Part shown: piece after piece, positions 1 to 56,117 of the stretch
Layout: the number at the start of each line of letters is the position of its first letter
How positions within the stretch are numbered: position 1 is the first letter of the stretch
Assembly: GCA_020053355.1 (NCBI GenBank)
Contig: JAGVNI010000007.1
Span: 5,557-69,556 of the forward strand
Source of the DNA: an archaeon
GTDB lineage: Archaea > Micrarchaeota > Micrarchaeia > Anstonellales > Bilamarchaeaceae
Direction: 5' to 3'
DNA length: 64,000 nucleotides
Notes under the pieces: model-generated
Database searches by the model: none
What the model saw: the letters and a program-made list of their open reading frames with translations, nothing else
What the model was told of the DNA's origin: nothing
Program-made: the position numbers and the translations under genes

Positions 1-212
1 GGTCATCGCCGATTCTGGACAATGTAGCCAGGAGCGACTTGCCGTCGTCAGCGCCTACTAGGGGCTGGATTGCCCGGAAAGGCGGCACTTCGCGTCTCTT
101 CGACGCATCGTTGCGCTGATTTACGACGGCTAATTGCGCCATTTTCCCACCTCAGTTATTACCCATCCCGCCTTAATATACTTTCTGCAGGCATGCTCTC
201 AAGTGGTCGTTC

Positions 213-1580
213 CTATAGCTTCGTGAATTTCGTGCCGCTTTCACCCGCAGATGCCGCGTTTTCGTCGAATGACGCAACGACAATGCCGTTCCTGCCAAGC
301 TCCTTGGCCTGATAAAGCGCAGCGTCCGCCATGCCCATGACGGCCTTCCTTATCCGCGTGGCCTTATCGGCAAGGTCATCCCATCCACTGCCTGCCGCCA
401 CCGCCGTCTCGGCAACTGAGAGTGATGCGATGCCCATGCTGATTGTGATGGTTATGATTTCGCCATTCGGCCCCTCGACCATCCGCGATGACACCGCGTC
501 CTTGCATCTCCTTGCCGCAATCGAGGCGCCGTCATTGCCAACGCCCGGCAGCAGGATGGCGAACTCCTCGCCGCCGTACCTGGCCATCTCCCTCCCGTTC
601 TGCACCCCGTCCTGGGGCGCGCTCGATATCCTTCCAAGGAGGTCCGAAGACCTCATCGTCGCGCTCGCAGTGGCAGCGCACATCGCGAGCACCGAATCGC
701 CCGTAGGGTGCCCGTACTTGTCGTTCACGCGCTTGAAGTGGTCGACATCGAGCATCACAATCGCGAGGTCGCTTCCGCCCCTTGCAAATTCCTCGCAGAA
801 GAACGAAAGCAGGTAATCGAACGCCCTCCTGTTATAAAGCCCGGTCAGGCCGTCGATTTCAGCCGCATACTTGAGTGAAAGAATTTTCGAGAAATCGAGC
901 GCGGCCGAGACGGCCGCCTCATGCCTGCTAATCAGGTTCCCGAATGTCAGGTCGCTGCCGACGACCTCGACCAGGCCGAAATGGTCATCCAGGGGGATGA
1001 CCAGCCGGGACGGCAGCAGGCCGCTCGGCCTCCGCTCCTCATCGATCCTTCCCCGGATGTCCCGGCGGTCGACGCTGTACAATCTTCCGCTCGTGAAATA
1101 CAATATCCGATTATCGCCGAGGGCGCCGCTTATGACCCCGTCCTGCCCGGGCTCGATTACCGCGGTCTCAGGCGCTAGGCGTATGGACTTGCCCTTGCGC
1201 TCCACGCAGATATGCCCCCGCAGGACCATGTCCCTGGCTGAGCGGAAAGTCCGAAGCCTTTCAGGGTCGACCATCGCCCCGTAATAATAGCGGTACGCCT
1301 CAGGCAGGCCGAGGGGGGTCTCGCCCGCAAGGAGCCGGATAAGGTTCTGTGTCACTTCCGCTTCCTTGAAAAGCGCGGCCCGGACCGTCCTTGCCGCCGT
1401 GCCAACTATTCCCTGCCTTCCCTCTTCCATGAGCTTTGTCAGCACCGCCGGCATCGGCCTGTTGCCGACCGCCTGCTTCATGGCCCGCAGAAGCGGCCTC
1501 GCTCCGAATGCGCCCTCCGGTGGCGGCGTTAGCGAGTCGGTTCTCCGTCTGTACTCCGGTTTGTTCCCCATAATCATCAC
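213..1580 (-). CDS. GGDEF-domain diguanylate cyclase-like protein with N-terminal sensor region
   Basis: C-terminal domain carries the signature motifs DGLTGLYNRRAF...MLDVDHFKRVND...GD...RYGGEEFAILLP...ALYQAK (GGDEF family, GGEEF active-site variant); about 200 aa N-terminal region of unknown fold; starts GTG/ATG at 1580/1577. Confidence 0.75.
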   Translation of the reverse strand: MMIMGNKPEYRRRTDSLTPPPEGAFGARPLLRAMKQAVGNRPMPAVLTKLMEEGRQGIVGTAARTVRAALFKEAEVTQNLIRLLAGETPLGLPEAYRYYYGAMVDPERLRTFRSARDMVLRGHICVERKGKSIRLAPETAVIEPGQDGVISGALGDNRILYFTSGRLYSVDRRDIRGRIDEERRPSGLLPSRLVIPLDDHFGLVEVVGSDLTFGNLISRHEAAVSAALDFSKILSLKYAAEIDGLTGLYNRRAFDYLLSFFCEEFARGGSDLAIVMLDVDHFKRVNDKYGHPTGDSVLAMCAATASATMRSSDLLGRISSAPQDGVQNGREMARYGGEEFAILLPGVGNDGASIAARRCKDAVSSRMVEGPNGEIITITISMGIASLSVAETAVAAGSGWDDLADKATRIRKAVMGMADAALYQAKELGRNGIVVASFDENAASAGESGTKFTKL

Positions 1581-1687
1581 GATGATGCGGCGCTGAACCT
1601 GGGGGTTCAGATACCCTAGGGTGATGGATTAGCTCCCTTAAGAATAAATACGCTCCCACCTGCCGGGCGCGGGCATCCCGTCCTTAA

Positions 1688-2209
1688 TTATTTTTTACCC
1701 GCAGTTTCCGTTTTCCCTAAAAACGCCGGTGCAAGAAACTGGGCGACAAGAAGGGCGTTCGTCAAGATGGAAGGCAGGGACATATCCGTATTGATAATGG
1801 CATCGTACGTCACTACGCTGTCCAGGTACATGATGCCCAGGAAAGAGAGCAGCCACACCATGAATACTGTATTCAGCAATATCCGCACTGGCAAGAAACC
1901 GGGGGCTGGTATCTTGGTTCCAAGATAATGCGCCACCTCGTCAGCCTTGTTATACGTGGGGCCTGTCTTGAATCCTTTCGTGAAAGTGAGGATAAGGCTG
2001 GAAAACAGGAATGCGAAAACTACGGCAAGGTATTCCGCCGGTTCCATCCACCCCCCATCCAGGAAATTACGCGCCTGGACGAGCAGCATGCCGGAAATAA
2101 ATACCGAGAATATGGCGCCGTATCTGGCCCAGCCGTACCTATACCTGCCCATATACGAGATTATTATCTCATCGATGGCATCTCGCGCCTTTCCGCCGCT
2201 TTTACTCAT
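1688..2209 (-). CDS. hypothetical integral membrane protein
   Basis: ORF with several hydrophobic helices; 8-bp overlap with downstream trpS; no recognisable motif. Confidence 0.4.
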   Translation of the reverse strand: MSKSGGKARDAIDEIIISYMGRYRYGWARYGAIFSVFISGMLLVQARNFLDGGWMEPAEYLAVVFAFLFSSLILTFTKGFKTGPTYNKADEVAHYLGTKIPAPGFLPVRILLNTVFMVWLLSFLGIMYLDSVVTYDAIINTDMSLPSILTNALLVAQFLAPAFLGKTETAGKK

Positions 2210-3401
2210 AAACCCGCTCCCACATCGAAGCCGCGAGCTTCCCGGTCTTCATGTACTTGTCGACGTCCCGCTCGGCAATCTTGCGCCTTTCGCGGTGCCC
2301 CTTCAGGAACGCGTTGATGCGCTCAATCAGGATGCCTTTCATCTCGCCGGTCAGCATCTTGCCCGCACGGTAGTCATCATGGATGGTTTTGAGTTTCGAG
2401 TCGTCGGGTTCGAAAAGGATGCTCAGCCATTGGAACGGCACGTCTATATCCGTGTTGCCGCCCAGTTTCCTGTGCTCCTCAAGCGTCGCCTGCCCGCCTG
2501 AAAACGCGTACTTGTTTATCTTGTTCTTCACCGTCTTCTCGTCATCGGTGAGGAGAATCGCCGTCTCGGCCCCAGCGCTCGAACTCATCTTGCCTGAGAT
2601 TCCCTGCAGCGGCGGGAGGAACTTGCAGTGGATGGCCGAAGTCTTGTAGTATCCAAGCCCTTCGGCGATGTCGCGCTGGATTCTCCAGTACGGGTCCTGG
2701 TCGATTGCGGCAGGAATCAGGCACCTTTTCTTCTCGAAGAACGTCGGGATGACCTGGTATGCCGGATAGAACTGCATGCCGATATTCGTCGAATCGTCGA
2801 ACCCGAATACCGCCTTCGCGGTCGAGCCGGTGATTTTCCTCGCGGTCTTCAGGAGCAGCGGGTAGACGTTCCGCACGTACTCGCTGTCCTTGAAGATGAA
2901 CGTGCGTTCGGGGTCGAATCCTACCGCGGCGATGTCGAGTATGTTGTCGTCCGCGTTTTTCTGGATGTCCGACCATTCGTAATCGCGCCTGTGGAGGAAC
3001 TTCTCATCGTCAGTAATCTCGATGTACAGATTGCACTTGAACCTGTCCTGGAGCCATTTGGTGAATATCAGCGGAACGAGATGCCCTATGTGCATGGCCT
3101 TGCTCGGGCCGCGGCCGGTGTAGAGGAAGAACCCCTTCCCCTTCTCGTAATCGTCGAGCACCGGGCCCAAATCCCTGTGCGAGAAGAAGAAGTCGCGCCG
3201 GAGCATGTGGTGCGGCTCGTCCCCGCCGGAAAGCCGTATCAGCTTCTCGCGCAGCGCCCTGTCCAGCCTGCTCGTTCCGAACTGCTTGATGAGCTTGTCA
3301 TAGTCGATTTCCCCGCTGACTTCCCATGGGGTGACCTTGTATTCGTCCATAAGACCAGAACTCAGATAATTGATTAAATCCTGCGCATGGCCTCTAGTCA
3401 T
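2202..3401 (-). CDS. trpS: tryptophanyl-tRNA synthetase (archaeal/eukaryotic type)
   Basis: HIGH motif (AMHIGHLVPL) and KMSSS motif; length and conservation pattern match class I TrpRS of the archaeal type. Confidence 0.9.
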   Translation of the reverse strand: MTRGHAQDLINYLSSGLMDEYKVTPWEVSGEIDYDKLIKQFGTSRLDRALREKLIRLSGGDEPHHMLRRDFFFSHRDLGPVLDDYEKGKGFFLYTGRGPSKAMHIGHLVPLIFTKWLQDRFKCNLYIEITDDEKFLHRRDYEWSDIQKNADDNILDIAAVGFDPERTFIFKDSEYVRNVYPLLLKTARKITGSTAKAVFGFDDSTNIGMQFYPAYQVIPTFFEKKRCLIPAAIDQDPYWRIQRDIAEGLGYYKTSAIHCKFLPPLQGISGKMSSSAGAETAILLTDDEKTVKNKINKYAFSGGQATLEEHRKLGGNTDIDVPFQWLSILFEPDDSKLKTIHDDYRAGKMLTGEMKGILIERINAFLKGHRERRKIAERDVDKYMKTGKLAASMWERVYE

Positions 3402-8633: not shown

Positions 8634-9437
8634 ATGGGGCGTGAGCGGCGCAACGCCTACTACGCGATTTACGCATTCTGCAGGCACACCGACGACCTTA
8701 TTGACGATAACGAGGGCAACCCGCGGCTCCAGCGCATAATGATTCGGAACTGGAAAAAGCGCTTCCTCGAAGCCTACAAGACGGGCGGCTCTGAAGACCC
8801 GGTCCTCAACCCTTTCATCCATGTCATGAAGAAATACCGCATCCCGCTGCGCTATCCGCTCGAATTAATCCGCGGAGTGAGCATGGACATCTCGAAAAAG
8901 GAATATGGGACTTTCACCGAACTGCGCAGGTACTGTTTCCGTGTCGCTTCAGTTGTGGGCCTGATGCTCATGCGCACCCTTGGCATCGAGAACGCCAGGA
9001 AATCCAAGCACTGCGCAATCAGCCTCGGCATTGCGATGCAGCTTACCAACATCCTGCGCGATGTCGGCGAGGACGCCCGCATGGGGCGCGTGTATTTCCC
9101 CAAGGACGAATTGGCGCGGTTCGGGCTGACCATAGACGATATCCTGTCCCACCGCAAGACCGAGCGTCTCATGAGATTTTTAAAATTCCAGGTGGAACGC
9201 GCCCGCAGCTATTATCGGGAAGCGATGCAGAGCATCGCGACCATCCATTCGGAAGTGCGGATGGTGATTGCGCTCGCCTCGACGCTCTACCGGGAGATAC
9301 TCACTGTCATAGAGGAGAACGAATACGAGGTATTCGCAAAGCGCGCCTACGTGAACACCTATCGGAAGATGCTCCTGTACGCCCGACTTGTGCTATTCGG
9401 ATACCCCCAACCACAGCCTTGCCAGAGCGGCGCTTGA
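8634..9437 (+). CDS. phytoene/squalene synthase family protein (trans-isoprenyl diphosphate head-to-head condensing enzyme)
   Basis: YAFCRHTDDLID (first Asp-rich motif) and LTNILRDVGEDARMGRVYFP (second motif). The conserved N-terminal block SKSFYFAS is encoded in-frame upstream of the annotated ATG (see findings). Confidence 0.8.
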   Translation: MGRERRNAYYAIYAFCRHTDDLIDDNEGNPRLQRIMIRNWKKRFLEAYKTGGSEDPVLNPFIHVMKKYRIPLRYPLELIRGVSMDISKKEYGTFTELRRYCFRVASVVGLMLMRTLGIENARKSKHCAISLGIAMQLTNILRDVGEDARMGRVYFPKDELARFGLTIDDILSHRKTERLMRFLKFQVERARSYYREAMQSIATIHSEVRMVIALASTLYREILTVIEENEYEVFAKRAYVNTYRKMLLYARLVLFGYPQPQPCQSGA

Positions 9438-9438
9438 C

Positions 9439-10698
9439 ATGCTTGGCACTGCACTGGCCCTATTTGAGATGAAGCGCAACCAGTGGCGAAGCCCACACGA
9501 CCTGCGCGAAATCTCGGAAAAGAAGATGCTCGCCCTGCTTGCGCATGCCAAAGGCACGACCTCGTTCTACAAAACGCGCCTTTCCCTCCCTGCAGCCGCG
9601 GTGCGGAGCCTGGATGACCTCCCTTCCGTTCCGACGACCAGCAAGGCGGACGTCCGGGACCAGCCTGCCTCTTTCATCAGTTCCGCATTTCCCCAATCAT
9701 CGCTCCGCCAGACGCACACCTCCGGTTCCACCGGGGTCCAGGTCCCGCTCTATTTCACGGAATCCGAATCCTCATACGGAATCGCGCTCGAGACGCATCA
9801 ATTGACAGAGTGCGGGGCCGGGCCATTCGACCTCCAGGCAAGGATAACCCATTACGAGTCGGCGCCGAACCTCCTCCAGCGTTTTGGGGTTTTCCGGTGC
9901 AGTTACCTGCCGGTGCAAGGCGAAGAATCCGACAACCTGCGCGCTCTCTCGCTTATGCGCCCAGGCATCGTAATCTCATACCCGTCCATTCTCCTGCCGC
10001 TCGCGCGCATCAACCAGTCGGAGAAGCGGAACCTGAAATTCAAGATGGCATTGGCCGGCGGAGAACTGCTCGCGCCATCTGCAAGGCAGGCCATATCCAG
10101 CTCGTTTAGCTGCCCAATCTATGACCGCTACGGTTCCATGGAAAGCTCATGGGCCGCATGGGAATGCAAGGACGGTTCCCTCCATATCCAGGACGACTGG
10201 GTTTACCTGGAAATCCTTGATAAGCAGGGCGTCCCGGTCAAGGATGGCAGGGAGGGCAGCATCGCCCTCACCCCCCTCTGGCGCAAGGCGATGCCGCTGA
10301 TTAGGTACCAAAGCGGCGACATCGGCGCAATTGGCGGGCGCTGCCGCTGCGGGCGCGGGCTCCGCACGCTTAAACTAAGGGCGGGGCGCGAAGACGATGT
10401 CATCGTGCTTCCAAGCGGGCGCATCCGCTCAGCGCGCTCGATAAACCTCATGGACGACATCCGGGGCATACTCGCCTACCAGATTGTCCAGGAAAGCCCG
10501 GGGCTCTTCATATTCCGCTACGTCCCAGGGACCGGTTTGGGCGAGCAGGGGAAGTCAGAAATCCAAAGAAGAATCGGGCATGGCTGCCTCGGCGAAAAAG
10601 TCCAGGTGGAGTTCGTTTCCCTGGATTCCATCCCAAGGGGCCGGACCGGAAAACTCCGGACGGTCATATCCAAAGTGCGGCCGGATGCGCGCGTTTGA
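9439..10698 (+). CDS. PaaK / coenzyme F390 synthetase-like adenylate-forming enzyme (paralog A)
   Basis: TSGSTG phosphate-binding motif, YGSME, RYQSGD, CRCGRG...DDVIVLPSG and terminal GKLRTV-type Lys motif; ATG at 9439 lies 1 nt after the stop of the upstream gene. Confidence 0.75.
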   Translation: MLGTALALFEMKRNQWRSPHDLREISEKKMLALLAHAKGTTSFYKTRLSLPAAAVRSLDDLPSVPTTSKADVRDQPASFISSAFPQSSLRQTHTSGSTGVQVPLYFTESESSYGIALETHQLTECGAGPFDLQARITHYESAPNLLQRFGVFRCSYLPVQGEESDNLRALSLMRPGIVISYPSILLPLARINQSEKRNLKFKMALAGGELLAPSARQAISSSFSCPIYDRYGSMESSWAAWECKDGSLHIQDDWVYLEILDKQGVPVKDGREGSIALTPLWRKAMPLIRYQSGDIGAIGGRCRCGRGLRTLKLRAGREDDVIVLPSGRIRSARSINLMDDIRGILAYQIVQESPGLFIFRYVPGTGLGEQGKSEIQRRIGHGCLGEKVQVEFVSLDSIPRGRTGKLRTVISKVRPDARV

Positions 10699-11470: not shown

Positions 11471-12556
11471 ATGCGCATTGTCCTCAAGCTAGGCAGCTCC
11501 CTGCTCAATGGCGGGCGGGGGGTGAATACGATATTCATCGACCAGCTTGCGAGCCAGATACTCGGGATGGAAGGCCACGAATTCGCGATTGTCACATCTG
11601 GCGCCATCTCGACCGGGATGAAGAAGCTGAACCTCGCGCAGAAACCCAAGGACGTGGCCATGCTGCAGGCGCTTGCGGCAATCGGCCAGAGCGACCTCAT
11701 GAACGCATACGAGAACGCGTTCGAAGACCGGAGGACGCTCGCGCAGGTGCTTCTCACAAACTACGATTTCTCGAACCGCATGAAATACATGAACATCCGG
11801 AACACCCTCAATACGCTGCTTTCCCACAAGGTGATACCGGTGATAAACGAGAACGATACGGTGACGGTGCTCGACATCAAGAAATCCGCGTTCGGCGACA
11901 ACGACGCCCTCGCGGCGCATGTGGCTGTCGCGATTGACGCCGACCTCCTGCTGATTTTCACGGATGTGGAGGGCCTCTACGACCGCAATCCCACGGATGC
12001 CGGCGCGACGCTGATACGCGAGGTCAAGAGCGTGACGGATACTGAGCTGGGGATGTGCTCCGGCGAAAGCGCGCTCGGCCGGGGCGGCATGGCCGCGAAG
12101 CTGCGCGCGGCCAAGATAGCGACCGAAGCCTCGGTGAAAGTCATCGTGGCGAATGGCACGGCCAAAGACGCCCTTCGCAAGGCCGTTGCGGGGGAAATCG
12201 GGACGTCGTTCGTCCCGGCGCAGACGCCGAAATTGTCCGAAGGGAAGCACTGGCTCGCCTTCGCATCCGAACCTAAGGGCCGCATCATCATAAAGGAAAG
12301 CGCCATGTCGTGCGCGATAGGCAAAAGCTGCGGAATCGCCCCGGGCGATGTCACCGGAGTCAGCGGCAATTTCGACAAGGGTGATGTAATCGAGCTGGCG
12401 TCTTCGGACGGGAGAGTGCTCTGCAAGGGCATCACGAATTATTTCTCGCATGAACTGGAGCGCATCAAGGGCAAGGACCTTGAGTCGATATGCCGGGAAC
12501 TGGGCTTCGTATATACGGAAGTCGTGGGAAGCTCGGACATGGCGGTCATAGGTTGA
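11471..12556 (+). CDS. proB: glutamate 5-kinase with C-terminal PUA domain
   Basis: Amino-acid kinase family N-terminal domain (VLKLGSS...VTSGAI) and C-terminal PUA; length 361 aa typical of ProB. Confidence 0.9.
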   Translation: MRIVLKLGSSLLNGGRGVNTIFIDQLASQILGMEGHEFAIVTSGAISTGMKKLNLAQKPKDVAMLQALAAIGQSDLMNAYENAFEDRRTLAQVLLTNYDFSNRMKYMNIRNTLNTLLSHKVIPVINENDTVTVLDIKKSAFGDNDALAAHVAVAIDADLLLIFTDVEGLYDRNPTDAGATLIREVKSVTDTELGMCSGESALGRGGMAAKLRAAKIATEASVKVIVANGTAKDALRKAVAGEIGTSFVPAQTPKLSEGKHWLAFASEPKGRIIIKESAMSCAIGKSCGIAPGDVTGVSGNFDKGDVIELASSDGRVLCKGITNYFSHELERIKGKDLESICRELGFVYTEVVGSSDMAVIG

Positions 12557-13821
12557 TTCCAAGGGGTGGTGGAGTGGACGCGGAAAAATACGTTTATGGC
12601 CTTCTGGAGGATGCCAGGATTGCCGGGCAGAATCTCGCATCGATGGATGATGCGGGCAGGAATATCCTGCTTGTGCGGATGGCGGCGAAACTGGAAGCGG
12701 ACGCGCAGGAAATCGTCAAGGCGAATGCCTTGGATGTGGATGCCGCAAGGGCAAAGATGACCAAAAGCGAGCTGGACCGCCTCGCACTTAGTCCCGAGCG
12801 AATCAAGGCCATCGCTTCCGACATCCTGGCCGTGGCGAAACTGCCCGACCCATTGAAGGGCGAAGAGAGCTGGGCAGTGCCAAGCGGCCTCCGAATCCGG
12901 AAGGTCCGGGTCCCCTTCGGCGTCATCGGAGTCATTTACGAGAACCGCCCGAACGTGACAATCGACATAGCATCCCTATGCCTGAAAAGCGGGAACGCAT
13001 GCTTGCTGAGAGGGAGTGCCAGCGCATTGAATTCCAACCGCGCCCTGATAAAGGCGATCTCGCCTGTTCTGGAAGCCGCAGGCCTAAAAGGCGCGGTCTC
13101 CTTCGTGGATACGCCGGACCGGAAAGCTGTGGACGTCATGATGAAGGCCCGGGGCCGCCTTGACCTTCTGATACCCAGAGGCGGGGCGGGCCTGATAGCC
13201 CACACGATAGAGAACTCGCGCGTCCCTGTGATAGAGACGGGAACCGGCAACTGCCACGTGTTCGTGGATGAGAGCGCGGATTTGGAGATGGCAAAAAGGA
13301 TTGTCATCAACGCGAAGACGCAGAGGCCGAGCGTGTGCAACGCCGAAGAGAAGCTGCTGGTTCATAGGAACGTGGCAAATGCGTTCATTCCGATGATGGC
13401 AAAAGCCCTCCGGGAAAAAGGCGTGGAAATCCGCGGCTGCTCCGAGACGCTCAAGCTCGTCCCGGACGCGGTCCCAGCCAAGGAAGGCGACTGGCCGAAG
13501 GAATATCTCGACCTGATTATAGCAATCAAGGTCGTCTCCGGAGTGGATGAGGCAATCGCGCACATCAACAAATACAACTCGAAGCACACCGAGGCGATAA
13601 TCACGGAAAACCGCCGGAACGCGGAACTCTTCACCCGCAACGTCGACGCGGCGGCAGTGATGGTGAACGCATCCACACGCTTCACGGATGGAGGTCAGTT
13701 TGGTTTCGGGGCCGAAGTCGGCATCTCCACGCAAAAACTCCATGCAAGGGGGCCGATGGGCGTCCGCGAGCTGACAACCTACAAGTACATAGTCGAAGGG
13801 AACGGGCAGGTCCGCGGGTAG
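12553..13821 (+). CDS. proA: gamma-glutamyl phosphate reductase
   Basis: Aldehyde-dehydrogenase-fold ProA with conserved catalytic Cys (RPSVCNAEEKLLVH); TTG at 12553 overlaps the proB stop (alternative GTG at 12574). Confidence 0.88.
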   Translation: MIPRGGGVDAEKYVYGLLEDARIAGQNLASMDDAGRNILLVRMAAKLEADAQEIVKANALDVDAARAKMTKSELDRLALSPERIKAIASDILAVAKLPDPLKGEESWAVPSGLRIRKVRVPFGVIGVIYENRPNVTIDIASLCLKSGNACLLRGSASALNSNRALIKAISPVLEAAGLKGAVSFVDTPDRKAVDVMMKARGRLDLLIPRGGAGLIAHTIENSRVPVIETGTGNCHVFVDESADLEMAKRIVINAKTQRPSVCNAEEKLLVHRNVANAFIPMMAKALREKGVEIRGCSETLKLVPDAVPAKEGDWPKEYLDLIIAIKVVSGVDEAIAHINKYNSKHTEAIITENRRNAELFTRNVDAAAVMVNASTRFTDGGQFGFGAEVGISTQKLHARGPMGVRELTTYKYIVEGNGQVRG

Positions 13822-13895
13822 CCTATCCGCGCGGGCCGGGCGGGCGTTCGATTGGCTATTAATTGTGTTTGCGCCTAAAACGGCTTGGTGTTCTC

Positions 13896-14654
13896 ATGAG
13901 AATCGCGATTATAGGAATCGGAAGGCTCGGAAGCGTCTTCGCGCGCGTATTGTCCAGGGGCCACGAGCTCCTACTTATCGACCGGGATTTCGAAGCCGCC
14001 AGGGTCGTGGCATCCGAAATCGGCGCGCAGCCCATCAAGGACATTGCGGAAGCGAGGACGTGCGACATGGCGATAATCACCGTCAAGCCCGCGCATGTGG
14101 AAGAAGTCGTCCGGCAAATCAAGGACGCGCAGCTAATCGTATCGTGCGCTGCCGGGGTTCCAATCCGGAAGCTCGAATCCTTCGGCGCGGAGAGGGTAAT
14201 CCGCGTCATGCCGAATATCTGCGCGGAAGTCGGCGAGGCGGTGATAGCCTACGCTCTCCATCCCGAAGTCGAGAAGAAGGAAAAGGTTTTCATGACCGCG
14301 TTTTCCTCGCTTGGAATGTGCATCAAGACCGACGAGAGCCATCTCGACACCATCACCGGGGCATCAGGCTCGGGCCCTGCGTTCGTCGCCTTCTTCGCCG
14401 AAGCGATGATTGAGGAAGCCGTGAAAAACGGGCTTGCCCGCGAGACCGCGGAAAAATGCGTCGCGCAGACGTTCCTTGGCACGGGGAAGCTCATGCGCAG
14501 CGGCTGGAGCGCGCAAAAAATAATCGAGACGGTCGCAAGCCCCGGGGGGACGACCGAAGCCGGCCTCAAGATGCTCGAATCGAAAGGCGCGAACAAAGCC
14601 ATCCACGAGGCTGTCCGCTACGCAGCGCACAAGGCCCGGGAGCTTGGAAAATAG
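13896..14654 (+). CDS. proC: pyrroline-5-carboxylate reductase
   Basis: N-terminal Rossmann motif IAIIGIGRLG and the conserved C-terminal P5CR dimerisation region (PGGTTEAGL). Confidence 0.85.
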   Translation: MRIAIIGIGRLGSVFARVLSRGHELLLIDRDFEAARVVASEIGAQPIKDIAEARTCDMAIITVKPAHVEEVVRQIKDAQLIVSCAAGVPIRKLESFGAERVIRVMPNICAEVGEAVIAYALHPEVEKKEKVFMTAFSSLGMCIKTDESHLDTITGASGSGPAFVAFFAEAMIEEAVKNGLARETAEKCVAQTFLGTGKLMRSGWSAQKIIETVASPGGTTEAGLKMLESKGANKAIHEAVRYAAHKARELGK

Positions 14655-14685: not shown

Positions 14686-15954
14686 GTGGGATTCCCTGAT
14701 TTTCTGGCCGAGGGCCTTGCTTTAGCGTCGCACAGGCGCAACCAGTGGAAAAGCCCGGGCAGCATCGAAGAAATGCAGGGCGAAAAACTCCAAACGCTGG
14801 CCGCCCATGCATTTACGCGCGTCCCATTCTATAAAAATCGGTTCCAGGGCTCCGGCATCAGCGGCATGCGGTCGCTGGAAGACCTCCGGTCGCTGCCAAT
14901 CACGGCAAAGGATGATGTGCGGCGGCATGCAGATGCCATGATTTGCTCAGGGCTTTCCAAGGATTCCCTTTACCGGTTCAGCACGACTGGCACAACCGGA
15001 AGCCCGACCGTCCATTACATGGACCATAGCGACGCCATACGTGGCGCAGCGCTGCGCCAGTTCACATTCATGGAATGCGGTTTTGCGCCCGGCGACATCC
15101 TTGCGAACCTGGCTTTCAGCCGGATGCCCCGCTTCCCCATGCAGCCCCTTCTCTACCGGGTAAAAAGCATCCATCCGGCTGAAGATTTGGAGAAAAGTTA
15201 TCGGGCGCTCAAGGCTGCAGCGCCTTCCATCGTTTTCGCGTACCCCTCCGTGCTCGCCATAATGGCCGACATGAACCTCCGCTCAACCTTTCCGCTGCAT
15301 TTTTCGAAAGCGGTGTCCGTATCGGAGATGTTACAGCCCGGGGCGCGGAAAATCATCCAGGAATCATTCGGGTGCAGCATCCGCAACTATTACGGCTCGA
15401 GCGAATGCTGGGCCATGGCATGGGAATGCGAGAATGGCAGCCTGCACATCAACTCCGATTCAGTTATCTTAGAAGCGGTGGACAGTGCCGGCCTTCCTGT
15501 GAAGGACGGGGAGGTTGGCGACCTGCTGATAACGCTTCTATGGAAGTATTCCATGCCGTTCCTCAGGTATCAAATCGGGGACCGGGGCCGGCTTGGCTCT
15601 CATTGTCCCTGCGGCCGCGGTTTGCAGGTCCTGAAATCTTTGGAGGGGCGGACCACCGACTACATCACCCTGCCCAGCGGCAAGCGCTTCCCGTGGATGT
15701 TCACCGAGACGCCCTTTGGCCAGACGGACGGCATCATCTCTTACCAGGTCGTGCAGGAAACCCGGGGGTCGCTCAATATGAAACTCATCGTGGCGCCGGG
15801 GGCCCCGCCCGGCATAAGGGGCGTTGTGAAATCCAGGCTGCTCTCGTACCTTCCGGAGAAGATGGACATGCAGGTTGAAATCGTGGACAGCATCCAGCGC
15901 TCGGGGCGCGGAAAGGCGCGCGATTTCATATCGAAGATAAAACCCCCGAACTGA
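14686..15954 (+). CDS. PaaK / F390 synthetase-like adenylate-forming enzyme (paralog B)
   Basis: TTGTTGSPT, YGSSE, RYQIGD, CPCGRG...TDYITLPSG, terminal GKARDF; GTG start keeps the conserved N-terminal NQWKSP block in frame. Confidence 0.75.
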   Translation: MGFPDFLAEGLALASHRRNQWKSPGSIEEMQGEKLQTLAAHAFTRVPFYKNRFQGSGISGMRSLEDLRSLPITAKDDVRRHADAMICSGLSKDSLYRFSTTGTTGSPTVHYMDHSDAIRGAALRQFTFMECGFAPGDILANLAFSRMPRFPMQPLLYRVKSIHPAEDLEKSYRALKAAAPSIVFAYPSVLAIMADMNLRSTFPLHFSKAVSVSEMLQPGARKIIQESFGCSIRNYYGSSECWAMAWECENGSLHINSDSVILEAVDSAGLPVKDGEVGDLLITLLWKYSMPFLRYQIGDRGRLGSHCPCGRGLQVLKSLEGRTTDYITLPSGKRFPWMFTETPFGQTDGIISYQVVQETRGSLNMKLIVAPGAPPGIRGVVKSRLLSYLPEKMDMQVEIVDSIQRSGRGKARDFISKIKPPN

Positions 15955-16016: not shown

Positions 16017-16913
16017 ATGGAAGATGGCGAGAACGAGATTTATGGCATGCCCGGAAGCTCCGAGCTGCCGCTTGCGAGAAAACTCATTATCAATGCGGCG
16101 CTGACAGGCAACTTCTCATCGAAAGCGGCCAACCCGGACGTCCCATGCACCCCGGACGAGATTGCCAATGACGCGCACCGGTGCTACGGGGCCGGCGCGA
16201 CTTTCTTCCACATCCATGCCCGCGAAGACGATGGGAAACCGTCCTGCAGGAAGGAACTGTACGAAGAAATAATATCGAAAGTCCGGAAAAAATGCCCGCT
16301 CGGCATCATATGCGCGACGACAAGCGGCCGGGTGTTCAAGACGCTCGAGCAGCGCTCGGCCGTGCTTGATTTGGAAGGCGATGCGAGGCCTGATTTCGCC
16401 TCCCTTTCCATGGGCTCGATGAATTTTCCGACTGAACCCAGCGTCAATTCTCCTGAGATGATAGAGCGCCTTGCCAGGCGCATGATGGAGCGGGATATCC
16501 GGCCCGAACTGGAGGTTTTCGAGACCGGGATGATTAATTATGCCGCGTACCTCAGGCGCAAGGGGTTCTTCAAGGCACCCCTGTATGTCAACCTTTTCTT
16601 CGGCCTTCTTGGCACCATGCCCGGGCGCTTCGTGGACATCGTCCACCAGGTCAGCAGCCTCCCTCCGGATTCGGTATGGGGGGCGGCCGGTGGCGGGCGT
16701 TTCCAGCTTCCGGTGAACATGTCCGCGATGGTCATGGGCGGGCATGTCCGCGTCGGCCTTGAGGACAACCTCTACTATGACTATGGCAAGACCGTCCCGG
16801 CCACCAACGTGATGCTCATCAAGAGGATCGCCCGTATCGCGGGCGAGCTTGGAAGGCCCATCGCAACTCCTAACGAGGCAAGGGAAATCCTCGGGATGAC
16901 GGAGAGGAGATGA
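16017..16913 (+). CDS. BKACE-family (DUF849) beta-keto-acid cleavage enzyme, 3-keto-5-aminohexanoate cleavage enzyme-like
   Basis: TIM-barrel Kce-like signature: INAALTG, HIHARE, conserved Glu/His metal ligands; about 290 aa. Confidence 0.7.
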   Translation: MEDGENEIYGMPGSSELPLARKLIINAALTGNFSSKAANPDVPCTPDEIANDAHRCYGAGATFFHIHAREDDGKPSCRKELYEEIISKVRKKCPLGIICATTSGRVFKTLEQRSAVLDLEGDARPDFASLSMGSMNFPTEPSVNSPEMIERLARRMMERDIRPELEVFETGMINYAAYLRRKGFFKAPLYVNLFFGLLGTMPGRFVDIVHQVSSLPPDSVWGAAGGGRFQLPVNMSAMVMGGHVRVGLEDNLYYDYGKTVPATNVMLIKRIARIAGELGRPIATPNEAREILGMTERR

Positions 16914-18235
16914 CCTGGCTCGGGGGAAAAATCATGGGAACATTGGATGGCGCCTGGAATCTCGCGCGTTTCCTTTCAGAGCAATGGAAGGGGCCGGACG
17001 AACTGCGGAAGCTGCAGGGGCGGCGCCTGGAAAAAGCCCTTGAGCTGTCTTATTCCGCCCCGTTCTACCGGAAAAAGATGGACGCCGCGCACCTTCGCCC
17101 ATCCGGAGGCATGGAAACCCTTCAGGAGCTTCCGGTGACGACCAAGGATGACATCCAGCGCGACCCGGATTCATTCCTGTCTTCTCTCCGCCAAGAAACG
17201 CATGTCAGTCATGAGACGACCGGCTCCACCGGCAAGCCCCTTAGGGTATTGATGGACCGCAAATCCGCGACCCTGCGCACCTCCCTCCTCTTCTCGAACC
17301 TGTTTTCCTGCGGAATAAAGCCGTTCAGCCTGACTGCCAAGCTTGTTTTCAAGGGCAACTCCGGGCAATACGGGGCGCTCCGTTCCTATGGGATACTGCC
17401 CATCCTATCCCTGGACATCCTGGATGACGAGAGGAAAAACCTGGAAATCATCCGTCGCGCCAAGGCAGAGGCGCTTTGCTACTACCCTTCCGCGACCACG
17501 CTCCTTGCCCGGGCGAATTTGGAATCAGCTAAGCCGCTGCGGCTCAAGCGCGTCCTTTCCGGTTCCGAGCTGCTGACGCCGGACTGGCGCAAGCTTCTTG
17601 AGGAATCATTCTCCTGCCCTGTATTCGACCTCTATGGATGCTGGGAGTTCGGCTCGATAGCCTTTGAATGCCCGGAAGAGCACGGCTTGCATGTGAATAC
17701 GGGCACATTCTTCATGGAAATCCTGGACTCCCGCGGGCGCCCGTGCGGGAACCGGCCCGGCAGGGTCGTCATGACCTCGCTAAGCAACATGGCGATGCCG
17801 CTCGTGCGTTACGATTTGGGGGACATCGCAACATGGGGCGGGCAATGCCCCTGCGGCCGCGGCCTTCCCCTCATAAAATCGCTTGAAGGCAGGGCTGATG
17901 ACATGGTCGTCCTGCCAAGCGGCACGCTCCGCTCCCCTCTTACGTTTCGGTTCACGGATTTGGAATGCGTCGCCAAGGGAATCCTCATGTACCAGCTTGT
18001 CCAGGAAAAAGAGGGCCTCTTCGTGTTCCGATACGTGCCTTCGGCCATAGGCCTTCCGGAGGGCTCAAAAAAATACATCGAGAAGCGGATAGTGATTGCC
18101 TGTCTCGGGGAGCCCGTAGTGGTGGAATTCGAGGAGGTGGAGGAAATAAAACGCAACCGCAGGGGGAAACTGGACCGGCTGATTTCCAGAGTGTCGCGGC
18201 GGCGCTCAATCCGGGCAGGCGGGGGCCCATCATGA
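16910..18235 (+). CDS. PaaK / F390 synthetase-like adenylate-forming enzyme (paralog C)
   Basis: TTGSTGKP, YGCWE, RYDLGD, CPCGRG...DDMVVLPSG, terminal GKLDRL; ATG overlaps the BKACE stop (ATGA). Confidence 0.75.
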   Translation: MTWLGGKIMGTLDGAWNLARFLSEQWKGPDELRKLQGRRLEKALELSYSAPFYRKKMDAAHLRPSGGMETLQELPVTTKDDIQRDPDSFLSSLRQETHVSHETTGSTGKPLRVLMDRKSATLRTSLLFSNLFSCGIKPFSLTAKLVFKGNSGQYGALRSYGILPILSLDILDDERKNLEIIRRAKAEALCYYPSATTLLARANLESAKPLRLKRVLSGSELLTPDWRKLLEESFSCPVFDLYGCWEFGSIAFECPEEHGLHVNTGTFFMEILDSRGRPCGNRPGRVVMTSLSNMAMPLVRYDLGDIATWGGQCPCGRGLPLIKSLEGRADDMVVLPSGTLRSPLTFRFTDLECVAKGILMYQLVQEKEGLFVFRYVPSAIGLPEGSKKYIEKRIVIACLGEPVVVEFEEVEEIKRNRRGKLDRLISRVSRRRSIRAGGGPS

Positions 18236-18867
18236 GCGTGGTCCTCCGCGAATACAAATCCACCGACCTTCCGGAGGTCGCGCAGGTCGTCAGGGACGGC
18301 TTCAACACGCTCCGTGAAAGCCGCGGCGGCCAGCACCCGGATGCCGAACTCGACAAATGGCTTTCAATGGGCGATTCTAAAATCGTCGCTTACGTCCTTT
18401 GCAGTGCGCAAGTATTCGTAGCCTATGATGAGGATACGGGAGAAATAGCCGGGATAGGCGCATTCACCGACCGTCGAATTGACCGAATTCTCGGAAGCGC
18501 CTACGTAAAAGGCCTCTATGTGCGTGAAAAATACCAAAGGGGCAAGGGCGGGGTCAAGGTCGGGAGCATGCTGAAGGACGAACGCATCAGGCGAGCCCGG
18601 GAGCGCGGCCTACGGAAAGTCTACGGTTTCTCTGTTCCGGAATCCAAGGGCTTCCATGAGAAGGCCGGGGCGACATTCTATCCGGAGCACGACTTCCATT
18701 ACATGAATGGCACGGTCCGCCTCGGCTACTACGAAATAATACTGAGAAAAAGCCCGTTGAACCCAGTCCGGATAGAGCCTTATCTCCACAAGGCCGGCAT
18801 GAAGCTCAACTATCTGAAGTGGGGGCTGCGCCGCTTATTGCATATCCCGCAGCTTGAACTTCAGTAA
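18232..18867 (+). CDS. GNAT-family acyltransferase-like protein (paralog C)
   Basis: Paralog of 10753..11373 (blocks LRESRGGQHPDAEL, YQRGKGGVKVG, YYEIILRKSPLNPVRIEPYLHKAGM); ATG overlaps the stop of ligase C (ATGA). Confidence 0.55.
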   Translation: MSVVLREYKSTDLPEVAQVVRDGFNTLRESRGGQHPDAELDKWLSMGDSKIVAYVLCSAQVFVAYDEDTGEIAGIGAFTDRRIDRILGSAYVKGLYVREKYQRGKGGVKVGSMLKDERIRRARERGLRKVYGFSVPESKGFHEKAGATFYPEHDFHYMNGTVRLGYYEIILRKSPLNPVRIEPYLHKAGMKLNYLKWGLRRLLHIPQLELQ

Positions 18868-19914
18868 TGCGGCAATCTTGCCGAGCCCCTTCAGCTTAAT
18901 CCCGGCATCGCCTTCTGAAGAGAAGATGACTATCTCAGCTTTCGCCTGGTCCGCAAGTTCTACTACCGCCTCGGCATCCTTGTCGGCGCGCAGATACTCG
19001 TCCAGCACAAGCAGCTTCTTCACAGCGTATGCCTCGACCGCCTTCTTGACCTCCGAAATCCCGTATGCCGCCCGTCCGGTGTCCTTGTGCACCTCGATGA
19101 GAAGCTCCTCGACCAGCTTCATCTCCTTCTCGAAGCGCTCCTCGCCCATGATTTTCTCGATTACGCCCCGGTTGAACAGTTCGTTCACGCCACTCCGTTC
19201 GGCATAACTGACATTCTCGAAGATTATTCGCTTCAATAGCTCGGGCTTGCGCTTCTCGATGAACTTCTTCAGGTTCTCCTTCGCGAATCCCGGCCCGGCC
19301 ACCACGTATTTTTCCGGGTGGCGTTCAATCTCCGCGGCGATGTCGCCAAAATACTCGCCCTCGGACTTCTCGTAATTGTCGCCCTTCTTGCTCCCAGAGC
19401 TGTAGAACTCCGCCCCGTATTCCACGCCGAACGCCCTCAGCATGGCAGTCAGGGCCTTCTCCTCGTCCATGACGATTATGCGTATCCGCGGCCTCTTGGA
19501 TTCCTTTTCAGCTTCCTGAAGGCGCTTCAATTCGTGCCCTTTCCACACCTTTGTAATCTTGATGCGGTCCCCCGCTTCTACGTCTATCGTATGGTACTTG
19601 CCGAGCTGGATGTATTCCTCCGGCTCCCCCCAGACTATGGGGCCAAGGATGCGCAGGCGGTTCGCGTTCTTCGCGAACTCCACCCTCTCCACATTCACCC
19701 GGATGGTGACCGGCTTCTTCTCTTCCTTGGTGCCGACCTTGTAAGTGCGCATGCTGTGCGACTCGACCATGTCCCCCGGGGCAAGGACCTTGTCCAGGTG
19801 CCACATGTCGTCAAGCGTATCGACCTGGAGCTTCATCTCCCCGGTCTTCCTATCCAGATGCACCACTTTCATGCCATTACCTGCCAATTCAAGCTGCGAA
19901 TATTCCCTGTCCAA
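18835..19914 (-). CDS. pelA: Pelota (Dom34) mRNA-surveillance / ribosome-rescue factor
   Basis: 359 aa eRF1-like three-domain protein lacking a GGQ motif; matches archaeal Pelota throughout. The 3' end overlaps the convergent GNAT gene by 33 bp. Confidence 0.85.
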   Translation of the reverse strand: MDREYSQLELAGNGMKVVHLDRKTGEMKLQVDTLDDMWHLDKVLAPGDMVESHSMRTYKVGTKEEKKPVTIRVNVERVEFAKNANRLRILGPIVWGEPEEYIQLGKYHTIDVEAGDRIKITKVWKGHELKRLQEAEKESKRPRIRIIVMDEEKALTAMLRAFGVEYGAEFYSSGSKKGDNYEKSEGEYFGDIAAEIERHPEKYVVAGPGFAKENLKKFIEKRKPELLKRIIFENVSYAERSGVNELFNRGVIEKIMGEERFEKEMKLVEELLIEVHKDTGRAAYGISEVKKAVEAYAVKKLLVLDEYLRADKDAEAVVELADQAKAEIVIFSSEGDAGIKLKGLGKIAALLKFKLRDMQ

Positions 19915-20714: not shown

Positions 20715-21252
20715 ATGCGCTGATTATGCCCTCAAGGCTCCCGTTGATGCCGAACCTGTCTGTTATTATCGTGCCGTTAACCAGGACCTGCGGCACAAGC
20801 CTCTGGCTCTGGCTGAGGTTCGATTCGTTCGCGAACTGCTGGTAAGCCCAGGTGCCGTTTTGCGTCGTGATGTCGAATTCCCTCCATTCGACATCCCCGT
20901 ATCTCTCCTCAAGCCGGGTCATGTCCGGCCGGAGCGCCTTGCATGCCGAGCAGTATGTTGAATAGAAGTAATTGACGATGAGCCTGCCATCCGGCGTGGT
21001 GGTGTTGGTGAAGTCGAAGCGGGGCGGCACGAACGGCTTGGTATCGGTGTTCATGACGTCGCTGGCGTTCCGCGAGAACGAGAGGTTCAAGGTGCTAGGT
21101 AATGACGGCGTTTGTTCGGGCTGAACCTGCGGTTCCGATGGCGATGCGTCGGCGGTGGTATTCGCGCCGGTTGCGGGGCTTTTCGCCGCGCATCCGAGAA
21201 GGAGCAGTATTATCGCGGTGAAAGTGACGGTGATTGCGATGGCGCTTCTCAT
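20695..21252 (-). CDS. secreted/membrane-anchored thioredoxin-fold protein
   Basis: Signal/anchor MRSAIAITVTFTAIILLLLGC when started at the internal ATG (21252); thioredoxin-like YFYSTYCSACKAL (CxxC) followed by a ...VPQVLVNG block; 9 N-x-S/T sequons. Confidence 0.55.
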   Translation of the reverse strand: MRSAIAITVTFTAIILLLLGCAAKSPATGANTTADASPSEPQVQPEQTPSLPSTLNLSFSRNASDVMNTDTKPFVPPRFDFTNTTTPDGRLIVNYFYSTYCSACKALRPDMTRLEERYGDVEWREFDITTQNGTWAYQQFANESNLSQSQRLVPQVLVNGTIITDRFGINGSLEGIISAFSAGQS

Positions 21253-21414
21253 AATTCCATATCCGCGTGCAGGATTATAACTGTTATCGCAAGCCGGCGG
21301 GCGTTCGATTCCCATATGGGGCCCCACAAAATCCGGCATGATTTTTGTGGTTTGGAAGCACATTATCGGATTAATCTATTTATTGCCAACACACTCCGGC
21401 TTTTTGGGGATGAT

Positions 21415-33158: not shown

Positions 33159-33781
33159 ACGATGACCTTCACCCTATCGCCATCCTTCTTTCCGAACTCC
33201 TTCTTGGCGTTGAAACTGAATATCGTTTCGAGGATGTCCGGCCCGTGGTGCGTCCGGAGCGGCACGATGATGGCGCCGTCTTTCCCCCCGAGCCTGCAGC
33301 GGTATGCGAAAAGGTCGCCGAACGTGCGGCCCTTGCCCCGGAATCCAGGAATGACTATCGGCTCGCTTTCAAGCAGCTGCTGCCTTTTCCATGCCAAATC
33401 ACCATCAAGCCTGATGTTCAGCGTTCCGGGGAACGGGTCGAAGCCGAGCTTCTCCTTTATCGCCTTCTTGTAACCGGGAAGCGACATGTAGAAGCTCCCC
33501 TCGCCCAAGCCACGGACAATCGTGCCTTCCATTTCGATGCGCCCGCCCTCGAAGATTGCCTTGAGGGAGGTGAATAATGCCGCTGATTCGTCATATGCCT
33601 TCTTCGTCAGCCGGATGCCGTCCTTTCCGCGCTCCAAATACCCGTCCTTGCCCAGCCTGGCGAGCTTCCTCGATGCGTTCTGCTGCGACATCCCTGCAAG
33701 AGTTCCAAGCTCTCCAGTGGTCAGCTTCAGCGGCCTTGAATACGCCCCTTTGCGAAGGAGCAGGATAAGCAACTCGTCCAT
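33155..33781 (-). CDS. rbkR: HTH-fused CTP-dependent riboflavin kinase (RbkR-like regulator/kinase)
   Basis: N-terminal winged-helix (LTTGELGTLAGMSQQNASRKLARL) plus C-terminal archaeal riboflavin kinase domain with GTLNIRLD and conserved Thr/Asn/Glu residues. Confidence 0.7.
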   Translation of the reverse strand: MDELLILLLRKGAYSRPLKLTTGELGTLAGMSQQNASRKLARLGKDGYLERGKDGIRLTKKAYDESAALFTSLKAIFEGGRIEMEGTIVRGLGEGSFYMSLPGYKKAIKEKLGFDPFPGTLNIRLDGDLAWKRQQLLESEPIVIPGFRGKGRTFGDLFAYRCRLGGKDGAIIVPLRTHHGPDILETIFSFNAKKEFGKKDGDRVKVIV

Positions 33782-39933: not shown

Positions 39934-39986
39934 CGTATCCCTTTCCGAAACCAACCATTCTAAGCTTTCCGCTCGCATTCTCCAAT

Positions 39987-43466: not shown

Positions 43467-45037
<1,571 letters not shown>

Positions 45038-56079: not shown

Positions 56080-56092
56080 GTTTAAAATAAAT
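56080..56092 (+). promoter_or_regulatory. TATA-box-like element upstream of gatD
   Basis: tttaaaataaatg about 26-30 bp upstream of the gatD ATG at 56118 (leaderless geometry). Confidence 0.4.
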
Positions 56093-56117
56093 GCCCCCAT
56101 TAATCGTGCGGGAGAAC

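Follow-up and report, generated by a model that had tools for sequence, protein, structure and literature searches.

A GGDEF protein encoded amid archaeal genes raises the question of whether such a gene can be native to an archaeon and, if so, whether its product could serve signalling by cyclic di-guanosine monophosphate (c-di-GMP). According to reviews, c-di-GMP and the enzymes that handle it are essentially restricted to bacteria (PMC10249747, PMC10086821, PMC5847659, 10.1101/2021.11.05.467447), and GGDEF, EAL and PilZ domains occur almost only there (PMC10249747). The gene in question occupies positions 213-1580 of a 64,000-nucleotide stretch of contig JAGVNI010000007.1, from a genome assigned to Micrarchaeota; this whole stretch is called the window throughout. 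Considered as a whole, the evidence supports understanding the encoded protein as a soluble cytoplasmic sensor diguanylate cyclase native to Micrarchaeota, within the DPANN archaea, that would make c-di-GMP as a messenger, and we assign this reading a probability of about 0.6. The protein is soluble; a linker helix connects its sensor module to a complete GGDEF domain, and the protein has been selected to retain its catalytic residues together with an RxxD motif. The first-pass annotation, made from the DNA sequence, had proposed a GGDEF (GGEEF) protein at these positions, and the identification stands: the cyclase matches PF00990 with an expectation value (E) of 1.5e-34 (119.5 bits, cut-off 23.8) and TIGR00254 with E=3.1e-38 (131.1 bits, cut-off 37.4), with the correction that the gene lies on the minus strand. 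The annotation had further offered a choice between an acquired bacterial enzyme and an archaeal messenger system. Both descriptions find support, as compatible rather than exclusive ones, in an old acquisition that is now a Micrarchaeota-specific family.

Bacterial contamination, chimeric assembly or misbinning, by which the gene would not be archaeal, is the usual account of GGDEF, HD-GYP and ComFB matches in archaeal metagenome-assembled genomes (MAGs) (10.1101/2021.11.05.467447, PMC12448109, PMC5847659), and the position of the gene at the very edge of the window could be taken to favour it. However, the identical protein is carried by a 203,489-bp contig, present in NCBI and JGI/IMG, in which the gene is internal, and the next gene past the window edge, on the same contig, encodes a protein (P0162) of a Micrarchaeota-only family. 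The GC content at third codon positions (GC3) is native, at 0.759 for the cyclase gene compared to 0.76-0.80 for the genes of the class I Trp/Tyr-type aminoacyl-tRNA synthetase (TrpRS), RadA, GatE and Pelota. Full-length cyclase relatives come from independent NCBI, JGI and Logan assemblies, namely L001 (GCA_040758235.1, 'Candidatus Micrarchaeota archaeon'), L002 (a 197-kb Logan contig), L007 (GCA_043812915.1, 120 kb), L008 (GCA_040758595.1, 53 kb), L009 (a 7-kb Logan contig, SRR29400112) and L012 (GCA_016926175.1, 46 kb). The cyclase holds the same position, downstream of TrpRS, in the window, L002, L008 and L009, the window TrpRS being 87% identical to its same-position orthologue in L002 and 77% to that in L008. 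Pelota, squalene/phytoene synthase (SQS) and an ABC transporter lie near it in the window, L002 and L008, and a block of ChsH2-like, transaldolase (TAL) and transketolase genes follows downstream in L001, L002, L008 and L009. In L007 aEF-1alpha is close by; in L012 the surrounding genes are RFC, archaeal PEP carboxylase, L10e and Nop56/58. Family members named by organism all come from 'Candidatus Micrarchaeota archaeon', in at least 7 MAGs (MFH2101444.1, MFH1393703.1, MFZ5501687.1, MEW6749018.1, MBN1170499.1, MFH1221989.1, MBN2477657.1 and P0003), and no named bacterial protein contains the N-terminal domain.

To the extent that sequence can decide, the synteny with archaeal genes, the 203-kb contig, the GC3 and the Micrarchaeota-only N-terminal domain rule contamination out, and we regard it as scarcely credible. 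Both grounds on which the first-pass annotation would have withdrawn its proposal thus fall away. On contig integrity, about which it had asked, the gene has positional orthologues in several independent Micrarchaeota MAGs and contigs, and the catalytic domain, as set out below, is not degenerate. The archaeal character that it had ascribed to the rest of the window is likewise evident from RadA, Pelota, GatD, GatE, STT3/AglB and the CTP-dependent riboflavin kinase. We take the gene to be, almost certainly, a genuine archaeal one with an intact GGDEF domain.

The catalytic domain and the sensor module

The GGDEF domain is supported by sequence and by modelled structure. Searched with phmmer, the cyclase matched 47 diguanylate cyclases of the PDB. 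An AlphaFold (AF2) model of the protein (m9f1e6bab9670), resting on a 33-sequence family alignment and replacing a 7-sequence model with a mean predicted local distance difference test score (pLDDT) of 57, reached a mean pLDDT of 79.7 and a predicted template modelling score of 0.72. The GGDEF domain in it has pLDDT 80-96 over most of its length and shows the palm-like GGDEF fold; Foldseek aligned it to 3ign, a Marinobacter GGDEF domain, with a template modelling score of 0.92, a root-mean-square deviation (rmsd) of 1.9 Å and E=4e-13. The two motifs quoted in the first-pass annotation are present, EIDGLTGLYNRRAF at residues 241-254 and RYGGEEFAILLPG at residues 334-346. Its reading of a C-terminal GGDEF signature was right; the length of ~170 residues was not, since two insertions extend the domain to ~200 residues (238-438). 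Pfam splits its match into two stretches because these lineage-specific insertions interrupt the domain.

At the level of single residues, D278 (within LDVDHF) and E338 align with their counterparts in WspR, 3ign and DgcB, and K426 and R430 sit in the segment YQAKELGRN. The PleD equivalents are D327 for the metal aspartate, N335 and D344 for guanine recognition, and K442 and R446 for phosphate binding; the catalytic roles assigned here are those established for PleD and WspR. On this alignment all residues for binding two GTP molecules and Mg2+ are present, and the domain is a canonical GGDEF domain. A degenerate catalytic domain is ruled out at residue level, the metal, guanine and phosphate residues and the GGEEF loop all being in place. 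Membership in the Hypr GGDEF subclass, which produces cyclic GMP-AMP (cGAMP), was considered and rejected: the position equivalent to PleD D344 holds aspartate (D295) and not the Hypr serine, and it is aspartate in 24 of the 27 full-length family members.

The RxxD motif, of the kind found at the inhibitory I-site, is conserved, with arginine in 25/27 and aspartate in 27/27 members, degenerate paralogues included. Its spacing to the GG of the active-site loop is 22 residues compared to the canonical 5; the family ranges from 5 to 26, and only P0136 has the canonical value. Responsible for the difference are 17 extra residues (GRISSAPQDGVQNGREM) without counterpart in any PDB relative, and judging from the alignments this loop before GGEEF is a variable feature that has grown within the lineage. 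The second insertion is confidently modelled as helices and is of highly variable length across the family.

The N-terminal part, which the first-pass annotation had called a sensor domain, does appear in the AlphaFold model as a folded, sensor-like module, and it matches no known family. Its pLDDT lies mainly between the 70s and the 90s beyond about residue 60, residues 1-28 fall below 50, and the beta-rich part holds a near-invariant VIP...G hairpin. The N-terminal ~235 residues have no Pfam match, and hhalign of the module against GAF, PAS, REC and cNMP profiles cut from bacterial matches gave nothing significant; against a GAF profile built from GAF-GGDEF proteins the probability was 0.4% (E=0.15), over a hairpin of 20 residues only. 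The longest Foldseek alignments of the full model were to 5llw, a phytochrome-diguanylate cyclase, and 4zmu, a GAF-GGDEF protein, at rmsd values of 12-21 Å. Neither Pfam nor hhalign thus identifies the sensor as a GAF domain, and we describe it as an unclassified lineage-specific sensor module whose modelled fold is possibly GAF-like. By analogy with bacterial cyclases, the long helix that leads from it into the GGDEF domain is presumed to be a dimerisation and signalling helix. The protein shows neither a transmembrane segment (hydropathy maximum 1.55) nor a signal peptide. As a separate observation, the disordered N-terminal tail of almost all family cyclases carries an RxxD-like motif, RR[RK]xD(S), which might be a second contact for c-di-GMP or a recognition site.

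Family history and the linked small gene

Searched exhaustively against 1.84 billion representative proteins, a profile of the N-terminal module matched 25 proteins, of which 21 had E<1e-10; almost all are 400-500 residues long. A word-indexed search with a broad N-terminal alignment returned 3. All aligned members have the same N-terminal module followed by GGDEF, and the module is known only in that architecture. The family comprises ~25 clusters at 50% identity with one GTDB species representative, and scans of GTDB and metagenome contigs revealed no family loci beyond those already found. The catalytic set is complete in 23 of the 27 full-length members, also where overall identity to the window protein falls to 22-35%, with several catalytic residues lost in P0128, P0140, P0143 and, partly, P0142.

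Of the 22 family GGDEF domains placed in a distance tree, 21 fall together on one side of a single split that excludes the 113 non-family domains nearest to the query (presumed bacterial), and for the same proportion (21/22) the nearest neighbour is a family member. Strict monophyly by neighbour joining was recovered in only 12 of 30 column resamples, the failure being due to one rogue sequence, P0130. The nearest non-family match, P0008, is surrounded by clearly bacterial genes, and by its sequence the GGDEF domain looks bacterial in origin. The tree split, taken together with the bacterial context of P0008, yields the pattern that fits a GGDEF domain taken once, long ago, from bacteria and since then inherited vertically, with fast evolution. 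The speed of change is seen in the comparison of the window with L008, where TrpRS (77%), Pelota (77%) and SQS (72%) are far more similar than the cyclase at 35% (sensor module 28%, GGDEF domain 46%); the cyclase pair compared was window 213-1580 and L008 10001-11398, at a fixed locus. Diversifying selection on the signal being sensed could account for such divergence, as could the replacement of one paralogue by another.

The cyclase gene does not travel alone. A same-strand small open reading frame (ORF) of 63-124 codons begins 35-150 nucleotides (nt) downstream of the cyclase in all ten family genes with readable context. In the window its start codon follows GAGGTGGG, a ribosome-binding-like motif, and the complete 89-residue protein (P0162) is found by exact match on the same 203,489-bp contig as the cyclase. 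Homology among the small proteins is demonstrated for six loci (the window, L001, L002, L005, L009 with two copies, and L012). In L006, L007 and L008 the downstream ORF corresponds in position only; no similarity to this family could be demonstrated. An iterative hidden Markov model (HMM) search over the 1,504 ORFs of the window and the related loci retrieved only downstream small ORFs, the next best match having E=1.6. In a database of 5.8 billion proteins the family has 14 clusters, all of them hypothetical proteins without annotation; Micrarchaeota is the source of all three that carry an organism name, and eight lie on contigs >3 kb that equal in size contigs carrying a family cyclase. In the conserved core, TP[VIL]PPE[VA]V comes after a basic helix, and the small protein gave no transmembrane segment and no match in Pfam or PADLOC. 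An N-terminal peptide common to small proteins and cyclases, suggested by visual resemblance, was considered and rejected, an HMM of the small-protein N-terminus matching 0/25 cyclase N-termini. In L009 (787-4756) the cyclase and the small ORF are duplicated in tandem, a degenerate cyclase with its small ORF coming first and an intact cyclase with its own second, with the two small ORFs homologous to each other (blastp E=4e-13), and in L012 the pair is kept in an entirely different neighbourhood. Tandem duplication as a unit and persistence in another neighbourhood argue for functional coupling rather than mere synteny.

These observations bear on two other accounts of the gene. It might be an orphan relic, a bacterial GGDEF gene without working pathway that is drifting to loss, as would suit the fast divergence relative to neighbouring genes, the degenerate active sites in 4/27 members and the rarity of the family. 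Yet all catalytic residues are preserved in the remaining 23, the gene is retained at one locus across genomes, and its pair with the small ORF has been duplicated and is conserved elsewhere; together these facts speak for purifying selection on function and make a relic quite unlikely. Alternatively, the cyclase might generate the signal of an anti-virus defence resembling a cyclic-oligonucleotide-based anti-phage signalling system (CBASS) or type III CRISPR, with the small ORF as effector. A fast-evolving two-gene module, duplicated in one locus, would have that appearance. However, PADLOC matched neither the cyclase nor the small proteins nor the Nudix-like neighbours (described below), the gene sits among stably arranged housekeeping genes (TrpRS, Pelota, TAL, transketolase) and not in a variable island, and neither an effector domain nor a transmembrane segment is recognisable in the small protein. 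The refutation is a weak one, and we nonetheless hold defence to be very improbable.

Proposed mechanism and its weighing

If the protein is the sensor diguanylate cyclase proposed, two subunits would dimerise through their linker helices, by analogy with PleD, WspR, DgcR and the phytochrome-diguanylate cyclase. A signal acting on the N-terminal module would shift the register of the helices and bring two GTP-loaded GGDEF domains face to face, and the paired domains would condense two GTP into c-di-GMP and two pyrophosphates, with product feedback through the conserved RxxD motif. That c-di-GMP would then act as an intracellular messenger in an archaeon is a further step. Candidate read-outs are the co-inherited small protein and/or, in some genomes, catalytically dead paralogues that keep RxxD. 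The paralogue P0143 in L009 has lost D278, N286, D295, K426 and R430 while retaining R310 and D313 of the motif. Lost catalysis with kept RxxD is the signature of bacterial I-site c-di-GMP receptors of the PopA and PelD type, and P0143 is by this analogy a candidate c-di-GMP receptor.

Several findings weigh against the mechanism so described. The search for other c-di-GMP components, which the first-pass annotation had asked for, found no partner within the ~160 kb covered, made up of parts of several genomes (the 64-kb window and ~95 kb of related loci): among the scanned ORFs of the window there is no EAL, HD-GYP, PilZ, MshEN or second GGDEF; the Pfam lists of L001, L002, L007, L008, L009 and L012 contain no EAL (PF00563), HD-GYP (PF13487), PilZ or MshEN; and neither the window nor the six loci have a c-di-GMP riboswitch at the Rfam gathering score. 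The disordered 17-residue insertion directly abuts the GGEEF hairpin and moves the I-site motif off its canonical spacing. The sensor module matches no known family in Pfam or by hhalign. The low identity of the cyclase (35%) beside that of its neighbours (72-77%) could also be read as relaxed constraint, and the small protein is a candidate regulator or effector by its gene linkage. Lastly, no archaeon has so far been shown to contain c-di-GMP (PMC10249747, PMC8646023).

Part of this evidence would suit a genuine archaeal enzyme with another product or role, such as synthesis of 3',3'-cGAMP, cyclic di-AMP (c-di-AMP) or linear pppGpG, a role mainly in binding a nucleotide (GTP or c-di-GMP), or a part in the interaction with the host cell that carries the Micrarchaeota, in place of an internal messenger circuit. 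The absence of turnover or receptor components nearby, the unusual insertions beside the active-site hairpin and a very fast divergence, typical of interface or conflict proteins, are consistent with it, and GGDEF enzymes with altered product do exist (Hypr GGDEFs; PMC10249747). Set against these points are the canonical guanine pair N286/D295 without the Hypr serine, the retention of RxxD in 25/27 members, which is sensible only if c-di-GMP or a close analogue is bound, and the lack of any signal peptide or transmembrane segment for export. We consider a different product or role unlikely, though the least so of the alternatives weighed here, and continue to prefer a cyclase that makes c-di-GMP used as a signal, to which we give somewhat better than even odds.

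A bolder proposal is that the locus represents a self-contained Micrarchaeota c-di-GMP module derived from the one ancient GGDEF capture, in which a cyclase with its own sensor is coupled to the small partner as a new type of effector or regulator, supplemented in some genomes by dead-cyclase receptors, and operates without EAL, HD-GYP or PilZ. We advance it tentatively, as an idea somewhat more likely wrong than right. If true, the domain Archaea would thereby gain its first c-di-GMP second-messenger system, and the module would possibly control the attachment of Micrarchaeota episymbionts to host cells.

Gene surroundings and comparison with known systems

The features discussed are collected in Table 1. 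Three start codons are candidates for the cyclase gene, GTG 1580 (455 residues), ATG 1577 (454) and ATG 1571 (452). One of the two ATG codons is the probable start rather than the GTG; the public proteins identical to the window cyclase are P0001 (452 residues) and P0144 (454). A hairpin immediately 5' of the start codon is not more stable than shuffled sequence (z=-1.3).

Table 1. Positions of the cyclase gene, its predicted parts and surrounding features in the window.
Feature	Position	Strand	Basis or remark
Sensor diguanylate cyclase gene	213..1580	minus	455-residue ORF from GTG 1580; PF00990 and TIGR00254 matches
GGDEF catalytic domain, residues 238-438	267..869	minus	PF00990, TIGR00254, phmmer, Foldseek
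Phosphate-binding K426...R430 (KELGR), last helix	291..305	minus	alignments to PDB cyclases and family
Insertion 2, residues ~389-415	336..416	minus	extra helical segment before last GGDEF helix; absent in PDB relatives
Active-site (A-site) loop GGEEF, residues 336-340	561..575	minus	invariant among close relatives; GGEE in 24/27 family members
Insertion 1, residues 314-333, LLGRISSAPQDGVQNGREMA	582..641	minus	variable disordered loop between RxxD and GGEEF hairpin; pLDDT <50
I-site-type RSSD (RxxD), residues 310-313	642..653	minus	aligns with WspR RSSD and 3ign RQSD
Substrate and metal residues D278-V-D280 (Mg2+), N286, D295 (guanine)	696..749	minus	alignments to WspR, 3ign, DgcB
Long linker helix into DxLTGL, residues 219-241 (216-238 in model numbering)	858..926	minus	AF2 helix
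Lineage-specific putative sensor module: five helices (residues ~27-102) and beta-rich alpha/beta part (~105-210)	951..1502	minus	AF2 model
Basic motif RRRTD, residues 11-15, in disordered tail	1536..1550	minus	family consensus RR[RK]xD
Small putative partner gene, 5' part (47 codons)	1..142	minus	ATG 142 after GAGGTGGG; window edge cuts gene
Repeated element TTAAGG(A)CGGGATG, copy 2	164..176	minus	22 nt upstream of small ORF; includes TATA-like TATATTAAGG; GGTGGGA after
TATA-like box TATTTATTCTTAA near repeat copy 1	1638-1650	minus	
Repeated element TTAAGG(A)CGGGATG, copy 1	1674..1687	minus	94 nt upstream of cyclase start
Multi-transmembrane membrane protein ORF, 173 residues	1688..2209	minus	no Pfam match; between TrpRS and cyclase; overlaps TrpRS ORF by 8 nt
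Class I Trp/Tyr-type aminoacyl-tRNA synthetase (TrpRS)	2202..3401	minus	PF00579; syntenic anchor upstream of cyclase
Pelota	18835-19914		archaeal marker
RadA	28707-29687		archaeal marker
CTP-dependent riboflavin kinase with HTH domain	33155-33781		archaeal marker
Archaeal STT3/AglB	52897-56010		archaeal marker
GatD and GatE	56091-59297		archaeal markers

The element TTAAGG(A)CGGGATG flanks the cyclase gene as a direct repeat, with two copies in 64 kb compared to 0.01 expected and with GGTGGGA 12-13 nt after each copy; in a wider alignment of 125-200 with 1630-1710, ~55 nt align. The downstream copy constitutes the promoter, Shine-Dalgarno sequence and start of the small ORF, and the upstream copy resembles it with the 'AAATG' start deleted. 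The repeat may be the leftover of an earlier tandem copy of the module or a common regulatory element; its exact pattern was not found in the other family loci. The 173-residue ORF probably stands outside the cyclase module: at its position L002 has nothing, TrpRS adjoining the cyclase, and L005 and L008 have a DUF1622 membrane protein.

Two paralogous types of small Nudix-like protein (~128-143 and 141-147 residues) recur near the cyclase, at L001 1999-2424; L002 11793-12185 and 12604-13038; L005 2623-3054; L008 9145-9531 and 13080-13523; and L009 4879-5736. Their PF00293 matches are weak (E 1.7e-5 to 0.05), the 141-147-residue type has apparently lost the catalytic REx2EE of the Nudix box, and at 69-79% they are conserved far above the cyclase; the corresponding region lies past the window edge. 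By their sequence they might be nucleotide-binding and not hydrolytic. Elsewhere in the window, three paralogous PaaK/F390-synthetase-like AMP-dependent ligases of CapK_C type (9388-10698, 14686-15954 and 16910-18235, plus strand) have between them proA (12490-13821), P5C reductase (13863-14654) and a beta-keto acid cleavage enzyme (16017-16913), an uncommon grouping for a DPANN organism of reduced genome. Riboflavin genes of bacterial type, a fused RibD deaminase/reductase (TIGR00326 'eubact_ribD', E=2.6e-90) and GTP cyclohydrolase II (38848-39978 and 43467-44150, minus strand), stand beside the archaeal riboflavin kinase/regulator at 33155-33781, which suggests further genes of bacterial origin in this genome. 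A 1,380-residue ORF (21112-25254, plus strand) has no Pfam or NCBIfam match; nor do ORFs of 340-497 residues at 42072-43433, 45801-47294, 36626-38802 and 44166-45278, typical of DPANN 'dark matter'.

Comparison with bacterial sensor cyclases (Dcsbis/PA2771 4zmu, the Idiomarina phytochrome-diguanylate cyclase 5llw, WspR, PleD and DgcR) shows the catalytic domain, its residues and RxxD to be alike and the layout of sensor, long helix and GGDEF to be common to both. The Micrarchaeota cyclase differs from them in its archaeal host, in an N-terminal module without similarity to GAF, PAS, REC or cNMP domains, in the 17-residue insertion between RxxD and GGEEF together with the helical insertion before the last helix, and in its obligate linkage to a small ORF of unassigned fold. 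Coupling of a cyclase gene to a small protein has its parallel in SiaD-SiaC (PDB 7e6g) and YfiN-YfiR, where the small partner controls cyclase activity; the Micrarchaeota small protein has no sequence similarity to partners of the SiaC/YfiR type and, as noted, no Pfam or PADLOC match.

Among archaea, the closest precedent is RCIX2274 (CAJ37382) of Methanocella arvoryzae, regarded by Galperin and colleagues as the only GGDEF/HD-GYP case from a complete archaeal genome (10.1101/2021.11.05.467447; PMC5847659). It is likewise an archaeon-encoded GGDEF protein of presumably bacterial origin, but a single ORF of REC-PAS-PocR-GGDEF-HD-GYP composition in one methanogen; by description, the Micrarchaeota family is set apart by having its own sensor domain, by having no phosphodiesterase fused to it and by being inherited vertically across a DPANN lineage. 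Within the same phylum, two 'Candidatus Micrarchaeum acidiphilum' genomes encode 'WspR-like' response regulators in which REC is fused to an inactivated GGDEF domain, their authenticity being left open (PMC5847659), and the same group has flagged these and other MAG cases as possible contamination (PMC5847659; 10.1101/2021.11.05.467447). The window cyclase has the GGDEF-type domain in common with them, yet it lacks REC and its active site is intact. In Haloferax and Sulfolobus, c-di-GMP was looked for by Braun et al. and not found; the authors also noted, without verifying them, >300 archaeal BLAST matches to GGDEF, among which Asgard and DPANN lineages supplied many (PMC8646023). According to Romling, archaeal proteins of this kind "need to be confirmed in archaeal contigs" (PMC10086821). 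The claim of the first-pass annotation that c-di-GMP signalling is essentially undocumented in archaea agrees with this literature, with the qualifier that unverified GGDEF matches in DPANN and Asgard MAGs had been mentioned earlier (PMC8646023, PMC10086821, PMC5847659).

A GGDEF protein in a DPANN MAG is in itself, then, not new. What we did not meet in the literature is the verification of such a gene as archaeal, a Micrarchaeota family with its own sensor and insertions, a single origin with preserved catalytic residues, and a linked family of small proteins. For one lineage, the locus supplies sequence-level confirmation of an archaeal GGDEF protein, and c-di-GMP signalling in Archaea becomes directly testable with a defined 452-residue protein. 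The 89-residue partner and the dead-cyclase paralogues are candidates for new receptor types. For DPANN biology, the significance would lie in a regulated signalling input in organisms of very reduced genome and attached lifestyle. There exists, finally, an analogy to the c-di-AMP signalling of archaea (DacZ, Haloferax volcanii; PMC10249747), likewise based on an archaeal cyclic dinucleotide enzyme; DacZ belongs to the DAC and not the GGDEF superfamily and makes another nucleotide, and c-di-AMP is experimentally established in archaea. Judged by its sequence and modelled fold, the window cyclase is a member of the GGDEF family and, in architecture as in taxonomy, a new variant among sensor diguanylate cyclases.

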